In this document: piece by piece, positions 36,061-45,586 of the stretch
Layout: each line of letters opens with the position of its first letter
Numbering within the stretch: position 1 is the stretch's first letter
DNA from: Escherichia phage W70
Strand: one strand, 5' to 3'
Sequence record: OP778610
Length of the DNA stretch: 64,000 bases
Notes under the pieces: model-generated
Seen by the model: only the letters and a program-made list of their open reading frames with translations
What the model was told of the DNA's origin: nothing
The model's database searches: none
Translations under genes and position numbers: made by a program

Positions 36061-37158
36061 TTAAAGTTCGAAATCGAAGTCAGATGCACTTACTGAAGAG
36101 TCAACCTGACCAGACAGATATTGACCATTTTCTAGTTCCTGTGGAGTCACCTGGACGTTTTTAGTATTCAGGTGGCTATTGATCCAAGGGATCGGATTCT
36201 TCAGTGGCTTACTGATGAAACTATCTAAACCAACTGCTCGCATACGTTGGTCAGCCATATAATCTACGTATTGCCACAGGATCTCTTTATTCAGTCCAAC
36301 CATCGAACCATCTTTGAACAGGTATTCTGCCCAATCACGTTCTTGCTGTCGTGCCTGTAAGAACAACTCACGGGCTTCATCTTTACAATCTTCTGCAACT
36401 CGTGCAATAAGGTCACCTTCACGACCACTCTGCATTTCGTTCAGAATATACTGAGTACCCGACAAATGCAAGGCTTCATCACGAGCGATCAGTTCAATAA
36501 TGTTGGTGTTACCAGTCATGATACTACGCTCACCAAATGCAAACGAACATGCAAAGCTCACATAGAAACGGATTGCTTCCAGAGCATTAATGCTGTGCAT
36601 ACACAGATACAGTGCTCGTGCATGTGCATAACGATCAACTGACAAGTTCAAAGCGTAACGACTGTTCAACTGGAATAAATCGTCATACAGCCTCGTAACC
36701 GCATCTGCACGTTCCAGAATTTCTGGAGTTTTCATGATCTCATCAAGAATTGCAGAAGGATCACTAAATACATTTCGAATAATGTGTGTATATGAACGGC
36801 TGTGGATTGTTTCACTGAAACCCCAAGTCTCAATCCAAGTTTCCAAAGCTGGATCAGAAACAATTGGAAGTAATACTGCATTCGGGCCACGCCCTTGAAC
36901 TGAATCAAGCAATGTTTGATACTTAAGGTTACTAATGAAAATATGTTTTTCATGATCAGGTAATCCCATAAAGTCAATTCGGTCGCGGGTCACATCGATC
37001 TCTTCCGGCCGCCAGAAGAATGCCAACTGCTTTTCTGTCAGCTTTTCAAATTTGTTGTGTTTTTGCTTGTCGTAACGAGAAACGTTAACAGACTCGCCAA
37101 AGAACATCGGTTGTTCCATAAAATCAAACTGGTTTTTGTTAAAAGTTGTGTAACTCAC
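36061..37158 (-). CDS. nrdB: ribonucleotide reductase class Ia beta subunit
   Basis: Strong similarity to recalled E. coli NrdB ([26 protein letters not shown]). Confidence 0.95.
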
Positions 37159-37870: not shown

Positions 37871-40129
37871 TCACAATTTGCAAGCACCTGATTCGCAACC
37901 ATCATCCTCTTCATCTTCACCATCGCGAGTTTCTTGATAGTAAACAGTTTTCAAGCCAATCTTGTAAGCATACATCAGGTCACGCAGTACAATCTTAATT
38001 GGCAGTTTGCCACCTGGATAATCCCAAGGTTTGTAGAAGGTATTGGTCGAGATCGACTGGTCAATAAACTTCTGGATGATAGCCATCAGGTTAAGATAAG
38101 CTGTCGGTCCGTTCATATCCCATTTGTACTCGTACACCACACCTTCCTCACCAACACCAGGAACCAGCGTCGGAAGCATACCCGCAGGTGACTTCTTAAA
38201 CGTCACCGGACCACGAGGAGGTTCAATCCCGTTGGTAGAGTTGGTGATCTGGCTTGATGTTTCACAAGGCATCATTGTGGACAACGTTGAGTTACGTAAT
38301 CCGTGCAATGCGATATCCAGACGCAAACTTTCCCAATCTTGTTGCAATTCTGCGGTATGCAACTGATCAACTTCTTTCTTGTAGCGATCGATAGGTAAGA
38401 TGCCACGAGAATAAGATGTTTGATCGTACCACTCACAAGAACCACGCTCTTTTGCCAACTGAACAGAAGCTTTCAGCAGGTAGAACTGGAATGCTTCCGC
38501 GAGTTTATGAACTTCATTGGCAGCTTCTGGCGAACTATATTTGAGTCCACGTTTAGCTAAGTAATACGCCAAGTTAGTCCAGCCAATACCCAAAGTACGA
38601 CGCAGTAACGTTTTCTCTGCTGCAAGAACAGGGTAGTTCTGATAATCAAGCAGGTTATCAAGAGCACGTACCGTGATCATAACAGGTTCTTCTAAATCTT
38701 CAAGCTTCTCGATCTTTCCGAGGTTGATTGCTGATAAAGTACACAGTGCAACTTCACCAGAATCTTTCGGGTCCTTAATGTTATTGATCGGGGCCGTAGG
38801 TAATGCAATTTCCATACACAGATTAGACTGCTTAATCGGAGCCACATCAGGAAGGAACGGACTGTTGCTATTGCAGTGGTCAACGTTCTGAATATAAATA
38901 CGACCTGTCTGGCTACGTTCTTGAGCTAAACGAGTGAAAGCATCCGTCGCTTCAAGCTCTTTGCGAGGAATGGAAGGGTCTGCTTCCAATTTCTCATACA
39001 GTTCTGCAAATGCTTCTTGATCCGAGAAGAAGTGTTTATACAGATCGCCGTTTGCTACGTTTGGATGGAAGAAACTGATCTTGCCACCTTTCTGTAAACG
39101 AGTATAGAAGAACTTGTTGATCTGAACACCATAGTCAACATGTCGTGCACGGGTGCTTTCAGTACCACGGTTGTTCTTCATTACGATCAGATTTTCAAAG
39201 TCCCAGTGCCAAATCGGGTAGAAGTAGTTAGCTGAAGCTTTACGCAGACCACCTTGAGATGCCCAACCTAAAGATTCTTGATACATTCGAACAATGCCGA
39301 CCGTACCTGCATGTTTAACTTCCCCGCCGCGAATAGGAGCGTCCTGTCCACGAATAGCACCAAAGTTCAAACCGATACCTGCTCGCTGTGCTGCATACTT
39401 ACCTTGTGCTTCAACTGCGGCAAAGATCTGGTTAATATCATCACCAGATTCAATCAGTACACAAGAACTGAATTGGCGAGTCGGAGTTCGTACACCACCC
39501 ATAATCGGAGTAGGCAGAGAAACCTTCATGGTAGAAACCATATTGTACAGATCAATCACTTTTTGTAGACGCTTCTTAGGATCTTCTTTACTCATCAAGC
39601 ACATTGCGATCAGCATCAGTGCTGTCTGAGGAGATTCAAAGATTTCACCTGTTACACGATCCTTGACCAGATATTTATCTTCGTACTGACGCATAGCTGC
39701 GTAAGTGTAATCAAAATCACGGTCATGATCGATAACTGTATCTAAAAATTCAATCTCTTCTTTCGTGTAATCTGAAATCAGATGTTCATCGTATTTACCG
39801 CGAGCCACAGTCATAAGAATGTGAGCGTACAGTGGACGAGGTTCAAAACCACCATAAGCCTGCTTACGCAGTTTAAACAGAAGCAGACGTGCTGCTGGAT
39901 ACTGATAGTTTGGACTTTCTACACTAATTAGGTCCGCTGCGGACTTGATCAGGGTATCGTGGATCGCGTCTGTTTCTACACCATCATACATCTGAATCTG
40001 AGATTTCATCAGGATATCAGAAGGACTTACATCATTAACCCCTTCACAAGACCAAACTACAACACGGTTGATTTTCTCAGCTTCGAATTTCTCTACAGAA
40101 CCATTACGCTTACGAACAGTAATACCCAA
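37871..40129 (-). CDS. nrdA: ribonucleotide reductase class Ia alpha subunit
   Basis: 752 aa; ATP-cone and catalytic motifs; close to recalled E. coli NrdA. Confidence 0.95.
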   Translation of the reverse strand: MGITVRKRNGSVEKFEAEKINRVVVWSCEGVNDVSPSDILMKSQIQMYDGVETDAIHDTLIKSAADLISVESPNYQYPAARLLLFKLRKQAYGGFEPRPLYAHILMTVARGKYDEHLISDYTKEEIEFLDTVIDHDRDFDYTYAAMRQYEDKYLVKDRVTGEIFESPQTALMLIAMCLMSKEDPKKRLQKVIDLYNMVSTMKVSLPTPIMGGVRTPTRQFSSCVLIESGDDINQIFAAVEAQGKYAAQRAGIGLNFGAIRGQDAPIRGGEVKHAGTVGIVRMYQESLGWASQGGLRKASANYFYPIWHWDFENLIVMKNNRGTESTRARHVDYGVQINKFFYTRLQKGGKISFFHPNVANGDLYKHFFSDQEAFAELYEKLEADPSIPRKELEATDAFTRLAQERSQTGRIYIQNVDHCNSNSPFLPDVAPIKQSNLCMEIALPTAPINNIKDPKDSGEVALCTLSAINLGKIEKLEDLEEPVMITVRALDNLLDYQNYPVLAAEKTLLRRTLGIGWTNLAYYLAKRGLKYSSPEAANEVHKLAEAFQFYLLKASVQLAKERGSCEWYDQTSYSRGILPIDRYKKEVDQLHTAELQQDWESLRLDIALHGLRNSTLSTMMPCETSSQITNSTNGIEPPRGPVTFKKSPAGMLPTLVPGVGEEGVVYEYKWDMNGPTAYLNLMAIIQKFIDQSISTNTFYKPWDYPGGKLPIKIVLRDLMYAYKIGLKTVYYQETRDGEDEEDDGCESGACKL

Positions 40130-40140
40130 TTTATTTCTCC

Positions 40141-40389
40141 TTATTTAGTTTCAGTTTTAGTTGCAGACTTGTTGATCAGGGTATCATATTTATCGACATT
40201 TTCAAGTGTCGGTTCACCTAATCGAACAGTTAATCCAGAATATTGATCGTGGTAAGTGTCGTCATAACCAAACGAGTCATCAACCAGATCATTAAACTGC
40301 AACCAACCTAAGTATTCATGCTTGCTTGCAAAACCACGCTGGAACCATTTAGTTTGTTCAACCGGAACTGTTAATTTAGATTTACCCAT
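40141..40389 (-). CDS. hypothetical protein (82 aa)
   Basis: ORF. Confidence 0.5.
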   Translation of the reverse strand: MGKSKLTVPVEQTKWFQRGFASKHEYLGWLQFNDLVDDSFGYDDTYHDQYSGLTVRLGEPTLENVDKYDTLINKSATKTETK

Positions 40390-40403
40390 AATATCTCTCC
40401 TTA

Positions 40404-40877
40404 TTATTTAATCAGTGTTTCAGAAAACTCAGGAAGATCCATAACGATTGTTTCGGAACGATCTTCTTTTCGTGTGTACTTACGGGTATTCACCTTTTCA
40501 ACAACCGGAATATCAAAATCTAAAGAGTTAACAAAAGCTGTTGCTTTTGAACTTCTAACATCCAGAATGTCCATCTTTTCATAGATATCTACCAGCGGGA
40601 ATTCTGATTTGTCACGTAGACGTCCAGAAAACACTGTTGTTTCACGGCAAAGGTACGGCTTGTCGATACAACGCACATTCACTCGGTTAATTCGGTCAAT
40701 CTGGCAAGGTTTATATTCACCAGTCTCTTCATTCAGAATTGAAACTTGGAAACCGATCAGGTGAAGGACTTTACGAAGAGTTTTGTCATCCTTCGGGTCG
40801 AAGTTCATGATTTTTGCACATTCCAAAATGAAATCCAGAGTTACTGCACCGTATTTAACTTCTTTCTTAAAACCCAT
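40404..40877 (-). CDS. hypothetical protein (157 aa)
   Basis: Start at ATG after GAGGAG RBS. Confidence 0.5.
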   Translation of the reverse strand: MGFKKEVKYGAVTLDFILECAKIMNFDPKDDKTLRKVLHLIGFQVSILNEETGEYKPCQIDRINRVNVRCIDKPYLCRETTVFSGRLRDKSEFPLVDIYEKMDILDVRSSKATAFVNSLDFDIPVVEKVNTRKYTRKEDRSETIVMDLPEFSETLIK

Positions 40878-40964
40878 TTTAATCTCCTCGTACAACATTT
40901 TAAAAGTGGGGCAACATGCCCCAGCGCCGATAATGATATAAAATTAACTAACCAATGTCAATAA

Positions 40965-41987
40965 TTATTTTGCAACATGTCCAGGAATTAACTGACGATG
41001 TTGAACAAACCCTTTCAGGTTACCACTCCAGAAGTTACCGTCGCGATCTACGTGAGTAATGCCTTCTTCCCAAGATTCTGGACACCACGGCACGTTCACC
41101 ATGCTCTGCCCTTCTTCAACATCCTCACACGTTTCCTGGATCTCCTTCGCCTGATGCTCGAATGGAGAAGCGTGAACCTTTTTACCCGATACAAGCTTGG
41201 CATAAATATCCAGAGCCTTATCTTTCGTATTGTTAAGACGACGATAACTTACCTGCCCACAACAAGAGGAAGAGATAGACAAAGCTTCTTCTTCAGACAG
41301 CATAATATGATTACCATCTTCATCCTGTACACAATACCCTGCGAAAATATGTCCATCGCCCAAAGGTCCAGAGTCGAAGCAATGATCTACGTAAGGAGTA
41401 TGCCACACCCCAGGCTGTAACCATTCTGGAGTAGAAGCTTTATAAGCTTCGTGCATTTTCTTAGCCAATACTTCGATCGTTGGATCTGCATCTGCATCAA
41501 CACGTAGCCAGAAGAAGTTTTCAAATTCCGTTGCTGTAACGATAGTCTTCATCATCTGGAACGGTTCGATCAATCGGTTAGCAATCTGCTTATGGAACCC
41601 TGCCGTCTCGAAACGTTCTGCCCATTCACAGGCATTTTCCGCAGCCTTGGCCCAAGCTTCTCGTCCGGTACAGTACAGTTCATGACACACGCCACTTGTA
41701 TCTTCCACCCAATCATACCATACTTTACCATCATGTTCTGTTCCTTTATCCTGCATACCAGGTTGGTTAGCACCAAATCGAACAGGCATTGCCATATTTT
41801 CACGGATCAGTTTAACCATTGTCTTGATCGGCACTGCACGAGAAGACATTGCATTTCGGCTAAACAGTCGGTGCGTCATAAGTTCTGAGTGAATGAATCG
41901 AGGATAGGTCAATTCAAACGTGGTGATACGAGCTTTACTACGGTAGCCAACAGAATCTGCAATAATACGGGCTTCAATCATGGACAT
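40965..41987 (-). CDS. ThyX-like (flavin-dependent thymidylate synthase family) protein, atypical
   Basis: N-terminal FELTYPRFIHSELMTHR-x7-SSR aligns with ThyX RHR-x7-SxR region; TPFEH-like HASPFEH lies near the C-terminus. Confidence 0.5.
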   Translation of the reverse strand: MSMIEARIIADSVGYRSKARITTFELTYPRFIHSELMTHRLFSRNAMSSRAVPIKTMVKLIRENMAMPVRFGANQPGMQDKGTEHDGKVWYDWVEDTSGVCHELYCTGREAWAKAAENACEWAERFETAGFHKQIANRLIEPFQMMKTIVTATEFENFFWLRVDADADPTIEVLAKKMHEAYKASTPEWLQPGVWHTPYVDHCFDSGPLGDGHIFAGYCVQDEDGNHIMLSEEEALSISSSCCGQVSYRRLNNTKDKALDIYAKLVSGKKVHASPFEHQAKEIQETCEDVEEGQSMVNVPWCPESWEEGITHVDRDGNFWSGNLKGFVQHRQLIPGHVAK

Positions 41988-42003
41988 TCAAATCTCCTCT
42001 CTA

Positions 42004-42210
42004 TTAATTTAAATCTTCAACAAATTGTGGCAAGTAATCTTCAATTGGGCGACTCAAATCATTTTCTCTTACAATTTCCAAGTTAGCAAGTCTTTTCTTT
42101 GCCAAGTAAGAAATAAATTCCTTAGTATCTACCCTGTGCCCTTCTAGTGCCAACTTACCGTCAATATAAACACCTTCCCAATCTTCACCTTCGAAAAATA
42201 CTATTTTCAT
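42004..42210 (-). CDS. hypothetical protein (68 aa)
   Basis: ORF. Confidence 0.45.
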   Translation of the reverse strand: MKIVFFEGEDWEGVYIDGKLALEGHRVDTKEFISYLAKKRLANLEIVRENDLSRPIEDYLPQFVEDLN

Positions 42211-42392
42211 TTTATTTTCCTGATTTTGTAATCAACACGAACATCATACATAACGTGAAGATACATGTCAAACATTTCTTTGCACATATCGCTTTTTACT
42301 TTGAAGGAAGCCAAAAGGCTTCCATTTTCTTTAGAAAGGATCTCTACATAATCCCCTTCCCTAACTACCCACCTTCCTTTACCACATCTCAA
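42207..42392 (-). CDS. hypothetical protein (61 aa)
   Basis: ORF. Confidence 0.4.
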   Translation of the reverse strand: MRCGKGRWVVREGDYVEILSKENGSLLASFKVKSDMCKEMFDMYLHVMYDVRVDYKIRKIK

Positions 42393-42994
42393 GATTCTCT
42401 CTCCAAAATAAATTCAGCAATCGATGCCCAATCGCTAGTTACCAAGTCGTAACATCCGATCTCTTCTTCATCTTGACTGAAGGGTGTATCATACTTGATT
42501 TTTACTACCTTGTCACTAAATTGATTCAAAAATTTATTACGATCATCAATGATGTAATCACCCGAAACTCCAGCCTTGTACTTTGTAGCATAAAATCCAC
42601 ACCCGTCTGTTCCATTTTCAAGGTCCAGGTTAGGGAAGTGTCTCTTCAAGAAACGAACCTTACTGCTAAAATGACCTTTCTTGCAATAAGAAACAAACCG
42701 AATAGGGAATCCTGCGGCATGTAACTTGTTGATTGCATCTACCGCCCCCGCAATAGGGAACATCTTATCATACAAGAAAGGATCTTCCCAATAATCATAA
42801 GGAGGGATAGCCTTCTTACAGCGATCAGGGAAGTACCGAGAAAGATTGTAATCAAAATACCCATTCTCGCTAATGTCCTTGTCCATAAGGTCAGAATCAG
42901 CCTCCATATTATAGATGCTTTCCATCCAGTGCAACCAAGGCCATCCAGAATCAACGATAGTTAAGTCAACATCCACAATGATCGCTTTTTTCAT
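42389..42994 (-). CDS. HAD-superfamily phosphatase, possible 5-prime deoxynucleotidase
   Basis: Motif I IVDVDLTIVDS; motif IV GDYIIDD. Confidence 0.5.
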   Translation of the reverse strand: MKKAIIVDVDLTIVDSGWPWLHWMESIYNMEADSDLMDKDISENGYFDYNLSRYFPDRCKKAIPPYDYWEDPFLYDKMFPIAGAVDAINKLHAAGFPIRFVSYCKKGHFSSKVRFLKRHFPNLDLENGTDGCGFYATKYKAGVSGDYIIDDRNKFLNQFSDKVVKIKYDTPFSQDEEEIGCYDLVTSDWASIAEFILERES

Positions 42995-43633
42995 TTACTC
43001 TTTCCCCTCTGAGAGTTTGATAATTAATTTTGCAGTTTCAGTTAGCTTACCATTAACGTTTTCAACGTCGAAATCTCTAGGTCGTGCACTTTCAGGGAAA
43101 TTCTCAGAGTAAATATAATTACGAGAATCACCTTCAAAAGTTAATTTATTACCTGTTCGTGGATCAGTACGATGTAAACGGATCAGGGTGTAATCACCAT
43201 TTACCGCTTTAACTACCGGAACACTTTCATGAATAAATCCACCATCAGAGCTAATAAATGTACAAGTATAACCATCCATTTCCATACTTTTCGCAATATC
43301 TTTAACACGCTTGGCAAGAGCAACACCGAAGTATTCTTCCCCGAAGAGAGGCTTCGCAACATTCTCCGAGATGTGGATCAGCCAGTTACGTGGGGACACT
43401 TGTTTACCTGCAACATTAAAATATGGTTGAGGTACTTCTTTATAATCACGGTGGTAAAGTGCATCCCACAGTTCACGATTAATACCTGCAATACGAATAG
43501 CTAGATCGATAAGGGAACCTTTAAACTCCACATGAATACCCACGTTGTTGCCTACGGTAACTAACTGAGCGATCTCACCAGCAAGAGCATCTTTACCAGA
43601 AAAAGCAGGACCATTCAAATTGATAAATTTCAT
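42995..43633 (-). CDS. deoxynucleoside monophosphate kinase (T4 gp1-like)
   Basis: P-loop MKFINLNGPAFSGKD matches recalled T4 gp1 N-terminus MKLIFLSGVKRSGKD. Confidence 0.7.
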   Translation of the reverse strand: MKFINLNGPAFSGKDALAGEIAQLVTVGNNVGIHVEFKGSLIDLAIRIAGINRELWDALYHRDYKEVPQPYFNVAGKQVSPRNWLIHISENVAKPLFGEEYFGVALAKRVKDIAKSMEMDGYTCTFISSDGGFIHESVPVVKAVNGDYTLIRLHRTDPRTGNKLTFEGDSRNYIYSENFPESARPRDFDVENVNGKLTETAKLIIKLSEGKE

Positions 43634-43656
43634 ATTAATCTCCTCTCAGTTTCACA

Positions 43657-43682
43657 ATAAAAAACCGCCCCGAAGGGCGGTT
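43657..43682 (-). terminator. rho-independent terminator (minus strand)
   Basis: ACCGCCCCGAAGGGCGGT hairpin plus T-run. Confidence 0.65.
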
Positions 43683-43691
43683 AAATCAAAA

Positions 43692-44786
43692 TTACAGAAT
43701 GTTTGCCAGCGTTTTCTTCATCGCTGCCTTCTCGCGAACATTCTGACGATCTCGTGCACAAGAACCACATTCTTGACAACGATAAATCTTGAACTTAGAC
43801 AAGAACGTTACTGCTGACTTACCTTCCTCAATAACCAGGTCGTCACTACCACAACGAACACAACGCATTGCCGTCTGATCTTTGTGGAACAATGCAATGT
43901 TCGGATGTTTACGCATGAAAGGTCGTACAGTCAGATACAGTTCTTCCAGCGTTGGAATATCACCAATGTTATATTCTTCCATCTCTTCAAATGCGGTTGG
44001 GTCACCTTCAACACAACGTCGCCACAGACTGAAACCTTCGTGCGACAGCTTACGACTATCAAGTTCAAAATAGTTACATGCTGCTTCAAGTGCATTTGAA
44101 GGAAGAGAGAAAGCTTCTTTCAGTGCAGCCAATGTATCGATCGTAATGTAAGGACTTGGTGGTTGCATACCGTAGTATGCGAAACGCTGATTTGCCCAAC
44201 CACGGTCAAAGCGAGCATTATGTGCGATGAAGATATCACATTCATCCAGAACTTTCCACAGGTCTTCGATCAACTTACGATCTGACTGGTGATCTCGTGC
44301 AAACTCTTCTGGATAATCCGTCAGCTTACGGCTGAAGATCGACGGGTTGTGCAACCACTTACCAGCGAATGTCAGCATGTACGGTTCCATAATTACCTGC
44401 TTCGGTGCAATGAACTGTTTAAATCGTCCAAACGAATATGCAACAGAAGGAGATGTTTCAACGTCACCAAGGAAAACTTTAGCACCTGGGTTCTGCTCTT
44501 TGATCTTTTCAATGAAATCTTTTTGAATCTTAGCAACAGGTTCACCACTCGACTCTTTCTGCTGCATATATTCCGCATAGTTTTCGTAATCTTCATAGGC
44601 CGGAGTAATTTCAAGGAGTTCCTTAACACTTGAAACATCATTCTTTTCAATTTCACGACGGATCATATTACGAACCGTGGATTCCTGAGACTCTTTACCC
44701 AATTGGCGAGCTACTTCACGCTGAGACAGACCGTGTTTCATCAGTTGCAGAACTTGTTCAACAGTAAAAGTTACTTTATTAGTCAC
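43692..44786 (-). CDS. DEDDh 3-prime-5-prime exonuclease with N-terminal HTH and C-terminal zinc ribbon
   Basis: Exo I GDVETS; Exo II HNARFD; HTH LSQREVARQLG; CxxC..CxxC. Confidence 0.6.
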   Translation of the reverse strand: MTNKVTFTVEQVLQLMKHGLSQREVARQLGKESQESTVRNMIRREIEKNDVSSVKELLEITPAYEDYENYAEYMQQKESSGEPVAKIQKDFIEKIKEQNPGAKVFLGDVETSPSVAYSFGRFKQFIAPKQVIMEPYMLTFAGKWLHNPSIFSRKLTDYPEEFARDHQSDRKLIEDLWKVLDECDIFIAHNARFDRGWANQRFAYYGMQPPSPYITIDTLAALKEAFSLPSNALEAACNYFELDSRKLSHEGFSLWRRCVEGDPTAFEEMEEYNIGDIPTLEELYLTVRPFMRKHPNIALFHKDQTAMRCVRCGSDDLVIEEGKSAVTFLSKFKIYRCQECGSCARDRQNVREKAAMKKTLANIL

Positions 44787-44796
44787 TAAAAACTCC

Positions 44797-45042
44797 TTAT
44801 TTAAAAAATTCGATTACATCGGCAACAGCAAAGTCACGGATATCTTGTTTATCTACATCATACGCTTTCATAAACCACTGTTCGCCACGATGATAGGGCG
44901 ATTCACCATACCACATCACTGGCGTTCCAGTTACAGTACGATAACCACACTCACCTTTCCAATTGCGATAATAAAACCGCAGGGTTGGTAAACCGTAGGT
45001 GTTATGGTCAACTTCTTGACTCATACAAATAACCCTCCTCAA
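44797..45042 (-). CDS. hypothetical protein (81 aa)
   Basis: ORF. Confidence 0.45.
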   Translation of the reverse strand: MRRVICMSQEVDHNTYGLPTLRFYYRNWKGECGYRTVTGTPVMWYGESPYHRGEQWFMKAYDVDKQDIRDFAVADVIEFFK

Positions 45043-45586
45043 GTTTATCGATAAACGCTTTTACATAAAGAGTTATCATCTCTCCTTTATCCAAGCTCTC
45101 ATCGATAACTACATTGTATCTCAATAAAGCGTTCGTTGCAATTGTTTCTTTCTTTAATCTCTTCAAATATTTTTTCAGGTCAGCAACAATCTCACCATGA
45201 AATTTCCTTGAAGAGTAATCCCTTTCGAGATAGTCAGCCATTCTACGCAGAACTTCACTCATTGTCAAGTCTGTTTTATCTTCCATATGTTTAGACCAAA
45301 GTTTTTGTACACCACCTTCGAAAAGGTTAAGAGTGCTTCCAATAACGCCCCTTACCTTTCCGTCGAAGTGGTCATGGTCCAAACAAGGCTTCTCCATAAC
45401 TTCACCCAGTATAGCACAAACTCCTTGTTGGTCAAGCAATATTTCATCACGATATTTTGCTATTTCTTTTGACCCACTTACCCAAAGATCCTTATTTAGT
45501 TTCACACGGATAGGTGTAGTCGCCTTATCCTTTGCTGTGAATAGAGGCTTCTTTGACCGCCGCTTCCTCACTCTCGGTACTCGCAT
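45008..45586 (-). CDS. recombination endonuclease VII (T4 gp49-like)
   Basis: CAILGE..CLDHDH..GKVRGVI matches endo VII zinc/HNH core. Confidence 0.75.
   Translation of the reverse strand: MRVPRVRKRRSKKPLFTAKDKATTPIRVKLNKDLWVSGSKEIAKYRDEILLDQQGVCAILGEVMEKPCLDHDHFDGKVRGVIGSTLNLFEGGVQKLWSKHMEDKTDLTMSEVLRRMADYLERDYSSRKFHGEIVADLKKYLKRLKKETIATNALLRYNVVIDESLDKGEMITLYVKAFIDKLEEGYLYESRS

Follow-up and report, generated by a model that had tools for sequence, protein, structure and literature searches.

The flavin-dependent thymidylate synthase ThyX has been studied in depth and serves as a target for antibacterial drugs. Several motifs from different subunits of the homotetramer combine in its active site, the reaction depends on NAD(P)H and methylenetetrahydrofolate, and an enzyme of this type needs no dihydrofolate reductase (DHFR). 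In the Mycobacterium tuberculosis protein the first arginine of the RHR motif (R95) contacts both the flavin and deoxyuridine monophosphate (dUMP), R199 binds the uracil, Y108 forms a lid over the reacting atoms (dUMP C5 and flavin N5) and shields them from solvent, and flavin adenine dinucleotide (FAD) is contacted by S71 and, at its phosphate, by R190 (PMC6514825). A ThyX-like enzyme of polyoxin biosynthesis, PolB (PDB 4p5a), methylates uridine monophosphate (UMP) or dUMP at C5. In phages the position of ThyX in nucleotide metabolism may be taken by enzymes of the ThyA family (thymidylate synthase and the hydroxymethylases of dUMP and deoxycytidine monophosphate, dCMP), which are unrelated to ThyX in fold and mechanism; the hydroxymethylases provide a precedent for a thymidylate-synthase-like enzyme that yields a modified pyrimidine (PMC8989533). 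Here we describe a 340-residue ThyX-family protein encoded on the minus strand, at positions 40965–41987, of a 64,000-nucleotide stretch of Escherichia phage W70 (OP778610; hereafter the window), together with the phage sub-family to which it belongs, in which the segments of the ThyX domain are encoded in a different order.

The open reading frame (ORF) begins with ATG, 6 nt downstream of a Shine–Dalgarno sequence, GAGGAG (41994–41999, minus strand), and encodes 340 amino acids plus a stop codon, the length of about 340 residues given in an earlier note that had been made from the sequence alone. Its product is 100% identical to A73_203, a 'putative thymidylate synthase' of Escherichia phage A73 (OP778609, Vequintavirinae); the window is equivalent to A73 positions 78010–142009, the end of that record, with a coordinate offset of 78009. 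Alignment to the Pfam profile Thy1 (PF02511), proposed in the earlier note as a check, gave a significant match (42.1 bits, E = 1.1e-10, exceeding the gathering cut-off of 24.8), yet one confined to residues 23–188, equivalent to profile positions 60–191 of 191, which is not the picture of an ordinary collinear ThyX. PHROG 85, 'thymidylate synthase', matches the protein with E = 2.6e-103. Profile match and ThyX fold both assign the protein to the ThyX (Thy1) superfamily; it lies, however, outside the canonical equivalog, since when the equivalog cut-off, the full signature, collinearity and the tyrosine lid were each tested it scored below the first and lacked the other three.

With canonical ThyX (T. 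maritima TM0449, M. tuberculosis Rv2754c and the H. pylori and PBCV-1 enzymes) the sub-family shares the S-x-R half of the signature, the dUMP-binding arginines, an H-x-(S/T)-P-F-E-H loop, the α1 motif A-x-V-S-(F/Y) and a genomic role in the supply of deoxynucleoside triphosphates (dNTPs). The two differ in that the α1-α2-HxSPFEH segment is encoded after the catalytic core in the phage sub-family and before it in canonical ThyX, and in length, the phage proteins having approximately 300–340 residues as against 210–250. A GxNQxGMQ insertion, a β-rich linker bearing WHxPY and a conserved extension of 60 residues further distinguish the sub-family. No specific sequence affinity of the sub-family to PolB was seen, and PolB is a bacterial enzyme of an antibiotic pathway whereas the sub-family is found in a phage dNTP module.

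The change of segment order was examined with a family alignment comprising the query and 120 representatives of no more than 50% mutual identity, and with an alignment of 120 canonical ThyX sequences resembling that of T. maritima; the T. maritima sequence used was 100% identical to the database entry. Residues 21–51 (ITTFELTYPRFIHSELMTHRLFSRNAMSSRA) align with T. maritima ThyX 61–91, T38 falling at R78 and A51 at Y91, and in this the earlier note had read the first 50 residues correctly as a counterpart of the RHR-x7-SxR segment with THR in place of RHR and alanine in place of the tyrosine. The HASPFEH string that it placed near residue 275 lies at residues 272–278, where H272-A-S-P-F-E-H278 pairs with H53-E-T-P-F-E-H59 of the T. 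maritima enzyme and with H69-F-S71-V-L-E-H75 of the M. tuberculosis enzyme. In profile–profile alignments (hhalign) query residues 20–187 match T. maritima 60–199 (P = 1e-5, probability 82%) and residues 238–281 match T. maritima 21–62 (P = 4e-6), so that two independent local alignments meet on canonical ThyX, neither overlapping nor leaving a gap, with their order exchanged. The motif census agrees with this: the PFEH-type motif was found after the ThyX motif in all 204 family members in which both were found, and before it in 120 of 120 canonical sequences. Because the swap is common to the whole sub-family, the rearrangement is a property of the sub-family and not an artefact of assembly or annotation.

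The resemblance could in principle be fortuitous, the protein being an N-terminally truncated but collinear ThyX joined to a C-terminal domain of other origin in which a PFEH-like string occurs by accident; the native sequence does give a single matched stretch in Pfam and TIGRFAM, and a Pfam search with the C-terminal 150 residues alone matched no family. However, the segment at issue, residues 237–281, when aligned by itself with hhalign matches, over residues 237–280, canonical ThyX 20–61, that is, 42 columns spanning α1, α2 and the loop, with a score of 47.7 (probability 95.5%, P = 1.4e-8), about 11 standard deviations above column shuffles (100 shuffles, mean 11.8, standard deviation 3.2, maximum 19.8; reversed segment, 15.3), and its template range abuts exactly that of the core match (60–199). 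Restoring the canonical order in silico, by placing residues 232–279 before residue 18–20, raised the Thy1 score from 40.6 to 53–56 bits, a gain of 13–15 bits, and extended profile coverage from 60–191 to 17–191, as compared with 40.3 bits for a shuffled insert. Across the family, 120 of the 121 divergent members scored higher on a canonical ThyX hidden Markov model (HMM) after the same operation (median gain, 14.0 bits), and the start of the HMM match moved from 63 to 22, whereas shuffled controls changed by −0.4 bits. The loop residues H272, S274, E277 and H278 are, moreover, approximately 96–100% conserved (in 121, 119, 116 and 120 of the 121 members, respectively), and the loop hosts an intein in some homologues. 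On these sequence statistics, namely the column shuffles, the abutting ranges and the family-wide gain, chance resemblance was rejected and is considered extremely improbable, while a rearrangement of the ThyX domain at the level of sequence is very strongly indicated.

What kind of rearrangement this is depends on the position of β1. In the AlphaFold2 model the protein begins with a β-hairpin (residues 5–29; 41901–41975, minus strand) consisting of strands 5–14 and 20–29, the second of which is aligned with T. maritima 60–69; the two are joined by a five-residue turn at the site of the 40-residue α1-α2-HxTPFEH excursion of the canonical enzyme. Strand 5–14 would be the equivalent of canonical β1, and the model suggests that β1-β2 has been retained and only the α1-α2 excursion moved, a transposition of an internal segment. 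If the hairpin is indeed canonical β1-β2 minus the excursion, the change would be such a transposition rather than a cyclic shift. A strict circular permutation, in which a tandem duplication was followed by loss at both ends, is a possible but rather doubtful alternative, and one that competes over topology and origin rather than function; in that case residues from approximately 190 to 281 would represent canonical 1–62 inclusive of β1 (the WHTPYV strand), and strand 5–14 would be a remnant or a later acquisition. Such an arrangement is suggested by the invariant W-H-x-P-Y at 195–199, followed by an insertion and then by an α1-like S-x-C-C-x-Q-V-S-Y, and by the β-strands that AlphaFold predicts directly before the relocated helices (201–205, 214–221 and 227–230). 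The succession of W-H-x-P-Y and α1-like motif resembles what we take to be the usual strand-Pro-helix start of ThyX, and we regard it as a lead only.

The assignment of β1 was approached with seven de-permuted constructs scored on Pfam, with family-wide constructs scored on the canonical HMM and with hhalign of short segments accompanied by shuffles. Neither strand 5–14 nor WHTPYV (195–200) added any score on Thy1 or on the canonical HMM, and neither aligned above the shuffled controls. Similarity between the C-terminal and N-terminal halves, which would be the mark of a degraded second copy, was not found, the 'double-length' members of the family proved to be intein-bearing rather than tandem duplicates, and the tight hairpin at the start of the model fits a retained β1-β2. 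The C-terminal extension had been considered as a degraded second copy of ThyX, and was rejected as such when hhalign of the C-terminal against the N-terminal half returned a probability of 0.2%. Thus, where the earlier note spoke of a circularly permuted or rearranged domain, the rearrangement has been borne out by the swapped, abutting alignments and the de-permutation gain, while strict permutation is a candidate only, neither strand having been assignable to β1 by sequence.

The hairpin leads into a collinear catalytic core (residues 20–190, equivalent to T. maritima 60–199; 41418–41930, minus strand, as are all features of the protein given here). This contains the variant signature T38-H-R-x7-S48-x-R50-A51 (canonically R-H-R-x7-S-x-R-Y; 41835–41876), the family-specific motif P-x-x-(W/F)-G-x-N-Q-x-G-M-Q (residues 68–79; 41751–41786), which lies in an insertion absent from canonical ThyX and in which G77 is found in 120 of the 121 members and M78 in all of them, the motif N-R138-x-x-E-P-F (41559–41579), whose arginine (in 120/121) pairs with T. 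maritima R147, and N157-F-F-W-L-R162-V-D-A-D-A-D (41484–41519), with N157 in 120/121 and R162, the partner of T. maritima R174 and M. tuberculosis R199, in 121/121. The β-rich linker that follows (residues 191–236; 41280–41417) carries the invariant W-H196-x-P198-Y, and a counterpart for it in canonical ThyX was not detectable by sequence. It is succeeded by the relocated segment (residues 237–281; 41145–41279), homologous to canonical ThyX 20–61 and comprising α1, α2 and the flavin-binding loop H272-A-S274-P-F-E277-H278 (41154–41174). The chain ends in a family-specific extension of approximately 60 residues (282–340; 40968–41144) with the motifs G-x-T-H-x-D and W-S-G-N-x-x-G-x-x-Q329-x-R331-Q, modelled by AlphaFold with a predicted local distance difference test score (pLDDT) of 84–90 and containing an arginine, R331, present in 121 of 121 members. 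In the rV5-like Escherichia phage vB_EcoM-ECP26 the homologue is annotated as two proteins, BFVD entries A0A4Y5TVX3 (245 residues) and A0A4Y5TVY4 (97 residues), with the core and linker approximately in the one and the PFEH loop and C-terminal extension in the other; this could reflect a frameshift, insertion of a mobile element or an enzyme genuinely made of two pieces.

H39, R50, A51, M78, R162, H196, P198, S247, H272 and R331 are invariant among the 121 divergent members, and R30, T38, S48, K133, R138, T153, N157, S274, E277 and H278 nearly so. By alignment, the dUMP-binding residues are largely kept, though not the counterpart of M. tuberculosis R95, R30, S48, R50 and R162 being the counterparts of M. 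tuberculosis R87, S105, R107 and R199 and R138 that of T. maritima R147, and each occurs in 119–121 of the 121 members; from the T. maritima literature we take R147 to be a residue that binds the dUMP phosphate. Part of the FAD-binding set, H39, R40 and S274 (M. tuberculosis S71), is likewise kept, R40 in 98/121 and the others in 98–100%.

Further evidence on the importance of these motifs comes from inteins. Among the 150 best family representatives, approximately 16 reach 520–680 residues because they carry inteins (Intein_splicing, HNH or LAGLIDADG), located at N-terminal sites in P0131, P0136, P0141, P0156, P0170, P0173, P0192, P0200 and P0263, at a middle site in P0233 and P0243 and at a C-terminal site in P0140, P0164, P0197, P0213 and P0229. 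In the four homologues inspected in detail the insertion points are THR|C, SS|SR, LRxH|C and H|SPFEH, all within conserved motifs, and the relocated H|SPFEH loop is the one occupied in P0140 and P0164. Inteins characteristically home into active centres (PMC5050341), and it is uncommon for a single small enzyme to have four separate ones; judged from the sequences, selection on the ThyX-family motifs is strong. These long members, with their two matched stretches, had also been considered as tandem duplicates, a candidate that was dropped when they were seen to be single copies split by inteins.

We consider it likely that the protein is a functional flavin-dependent thymidylate synthase, rearranged in sequence and constituting a phage-specific member of the ThyX superfamily, and the activity that appears most likely is the ordinary conversion of dUMP to deoxythymidine monophosphate (dTMP). 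The catalytic core, with the ThyX motif and the R147- and R174-type arginines, directly follows the short N-terminal hairpin, and in our current model the α1-α2-HxSPFEH segment, canonically situated between β1 and β2 and here encoded some 200 residues later (237–281) and followed by the 60-residue extension, would fold back and so restore the flavin and folate site of ThyX. In a ThyX-like assembly the reduced flavin would then, as in the known reaction, take the methylene group from methylenetetrahydrofolate (CH2-H4folate) and hand it to C5 of dUMP, and the resulting thymidylate would be supplied for phage DNA replication beside the phage's own ribonucleotide reductases and deoxynucleoside monophosphate (dNMP) kinase, with DHFR not being needed. 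Residues of the extension, for example the invariant R331, may take the place of the canonical arginines and tyrosine lid, and R331, R/K44 and W320, basic and aromatic residues of the new parts, may compensate for the lost arginine and tyrosine residues. Homology, swapped order, conservation and genomic surroundings are seen directly in the sequences; where the relocated segment sits in three dimensions, how the subunits assemble, which cofactor is bound and which reaction is catalysed are predictions. A tblastn search of the 142 kb A73 genome for the E. coli proteins ThyA, FolA (DHFR) and Dut gave no match better than E = 0.4, and the 340-residue protein is the only candidate for a thymidylate synthase found in that genome.

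A number of points weigh against this assignment. The protein misses the TIGR02170 equivalog cut-off by a wide interval (43.2 bits vs 87.9), sequence searches of the PDB with it gave nothing closer than E ~1, and the AlphaFold monomer model is least confident precisely at the relocated segment (pLDDT 54–60, residues 241–280) and at the ThyX loop. Experimental reports for any member of the sub-family were not found in the literature searched. The host has a ThyA of its own, so that a dTMP synthase is not strictly needed by the phage. Three residues that are invariant in the canonical enzymes compared are, furthermore, replaced family-wide: T. maritima R78 (M. tuberculosis R95), the first arginine of RHR, by T38; Y91 (Y108), the lid tyrosine, by A51; and R165 (R190) by T153. 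In the family, threonine stands before HR in 222 of 224 motifs and alanine after SxR in all 224, as compared with arginine and tyrosine in 120/120 canonical sequences.

These losses could be taken to mean that the protein is catalytically dead and that it has a regulatory or binding role, such as the sequestration of dUMP or folate. We regard this as very unlikely, given that the other substrate- and cofactor-binding residues are almost perfectly conserved among members no more than 50% identical, that inteins target the conserved motifs and that the gene has been kept within the dNTP-synthesis modules of very different phage lineages. The losses could alternatively signify that the rearranged site, with no first arginine of RHR, with no tyrosine lid and with an added extension, catalyses a reaction other than the methylation of dUMP, as the earlier note had supposed in proposing altered chemistry. 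Candidate reactions are the hydration of an exocyclic methylene to give 5-hydroxymethyl-dUMP, a PolB-like methylation of another nucleotide, or the use of a different flavin or reductant. The residues in question shield C5 and N5 and contact FAD and dUMP (PMC6514825), and their family-wide replacement (R78 to T, Y91 to A, R165 to T), along with a score under the thyX equivalog cut-off, is what such a proposal can draw upon. Against it, the Vequintavirinae were described in the BASEL study as 'exceptionally susceptible' to restriction-modification systems (PMC8594841), and because of this sensitivity a modified pyrimidine in the DNA, and in particular bulk base modification, is disfavoured. The neighbouring genes are ordinary dNTP-supply genes, with no modification genes of the glycosyl-, amino-acyl- or kinase-type, and a second thymidylate synthase was not found in the A73 genome by tblastn. 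The family is also spread over about 1,000 phage genomes from widely differing lineages (rV5-like, phi92, ICP1, N4-like, Pakpunavirus and phiCbK), and we know of no thymine modification reported for any of these groups. Altered chemistry of this kind thus seems improbable: the R-to-T and Y-to-A changes are real, but no positive support for it emerged, and the gene context, the lone synthase and the restriction sensitivity point to dTMP. Scarcely better are the prospects of the related view that the relocated loop, the extension (R331, Q329 and W-S-G-N) and the loss of Arg, Tyr and Arg together define a distinct catalytic variant among flavin-dependent nucleotide methylases, which may, for example, employ another form of flavin or another reductant, release 5-hydroxymethyl-dUMP from a solvent-open site or act on another nucleotide; this too we hold to be unlikely, and an ordinary dTMP synthase of rearranged sequence is the interpretation we retain.

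The sub-family is widespread among phages. By tblastn the protein is present in 1,021 of 50,697 phage records, near full length in 995, or approximately 2% of phage genomes, and the carriers include rV5-like and phi92-like coliphages, Vibrio phage ICP1, Pseudomonas phages of the Pakpunavirus type, N4-like podoviruses and Caulobacter phiCbK; an exhaustive profile search yielded 5,427 clusters at 50% identity. When two strict motif patterns were run against 185,579 species genomes, only ten loci matched, all of them in metagenome-assembled genomes and probably representing phage contigs, and the sub-family appears to be restricted to phages. The thyX of DSS3phi2 matches the 340-residue protein at 31% identity over 99% of its length, and in N4-like roseophages thyX is described as lying close to a dCMP deaminase gene (PMC2784036, PMC11934525). 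Two phage records labelled 'Campylobacter', MG065650 (B15) and MG065672 (A141), match the thyX-like gene about as well as rV5-like and phAPEC8-like coliphage records do, with 51% protein identity for A141 as for Escherichia phage isim and the same 39-nt DNA match for B15 as for phAPEC8; the host labels of these two records may be wrong.

In the literature searched on ThyX permutation, phage ThyX motifs, rV5 and Vequintavirinae no description was found of the swapped order or of the T-H-R / S-x-R-A variant, and the papers in question treat the genes of the sub-family as ordinary thyX. Some records annotate the gene solely as 'hypothetical protein', because profile models see only two-thirds of the domain and the equivalog model fails; a sub-family profile in the native order would cure this under-annotation. 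Apparently, then, a robust and widespread rearrangement has been overlooked in an enzyme family that is a drug target. Since an active-site motif has been moved across the core and three 'invariant' residues have been replaced, the sub-family offers a natural test of which elements of the ThyX architecture the enzyme really needs. Should its members be ordinary dTMP synthases, as we expect, this is a neat protein rearrangement rather than new biology; should the chemistry differ, many therapeutic and model phages, for example ICP1, phi92 and the N4-like viruses, would be concerned.

The gene is situated in a dNTP-synthesis neighbourhood, as the earlier note had recognized. Downstream, on the same (minus) strand, are the genes for class Ia ribonucleotide reductase alpha (nrdA, 37871–40129) and beta (nrdB, 36061–37158; converted from A73 114070–115167), and upstream, also on the minus strand, are those for an NT5C-like 5'(3')-deoxyribonucleotidase of the HAD family (42389–42994; PF06941, E = 2.9e-8) and for the dNMP kinase (42995–43633; phrog_139, E = 1.3e-32); a class III ribonucleotide reductase and its activase are also among the dNTP-supply genes near the thyX-like gene. 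A strong hairpin of terminator type, AACCGCCC-TTCG-GGGCGGTT with a run of T after it (43663–43682, minus strand), separates the dNMP kinase gene from an exonuclease-subunit gene (43692–44786), and because of this hairpin the dNMP kinase, nucleotidase, thyX-like and nrdA genes may form a transcription unit of their own, as the sequence suggests.

Interleaved with the dNTP-synthesis genes are four small conserved phage ORFs (phrog_5488, phrog_5557, phrog_19048 and phrog_4903) at 40141–40898 and 42004–42392 on the minus strand. Two near-consensus sigma-70-like promoters were also noted on the minus strand, at 40933–40961 and 42243–42271 (TTGACA, a 17 nt spacer and TATCAT or TATGAT, 11 of 12 matches); the former lies directly 3' of the thyX-like stop codon and ahead of an ORF of 164 residues at 40404–40898. 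Adjoining the exonuclease-subunit gene is an ORF of 81 residues (44797–45042, minus strand) with a weak match to the WYL domain (E = 0.0011, under the Pfam cut-off). Outside the window, the DNA polymerase of A73 (41848–45250 in A73 coordinates) is represented by two coding sequences, A73_98 and A73_100, with a small ORF between them, which suggests that the polymerase gene is split or interrupted.

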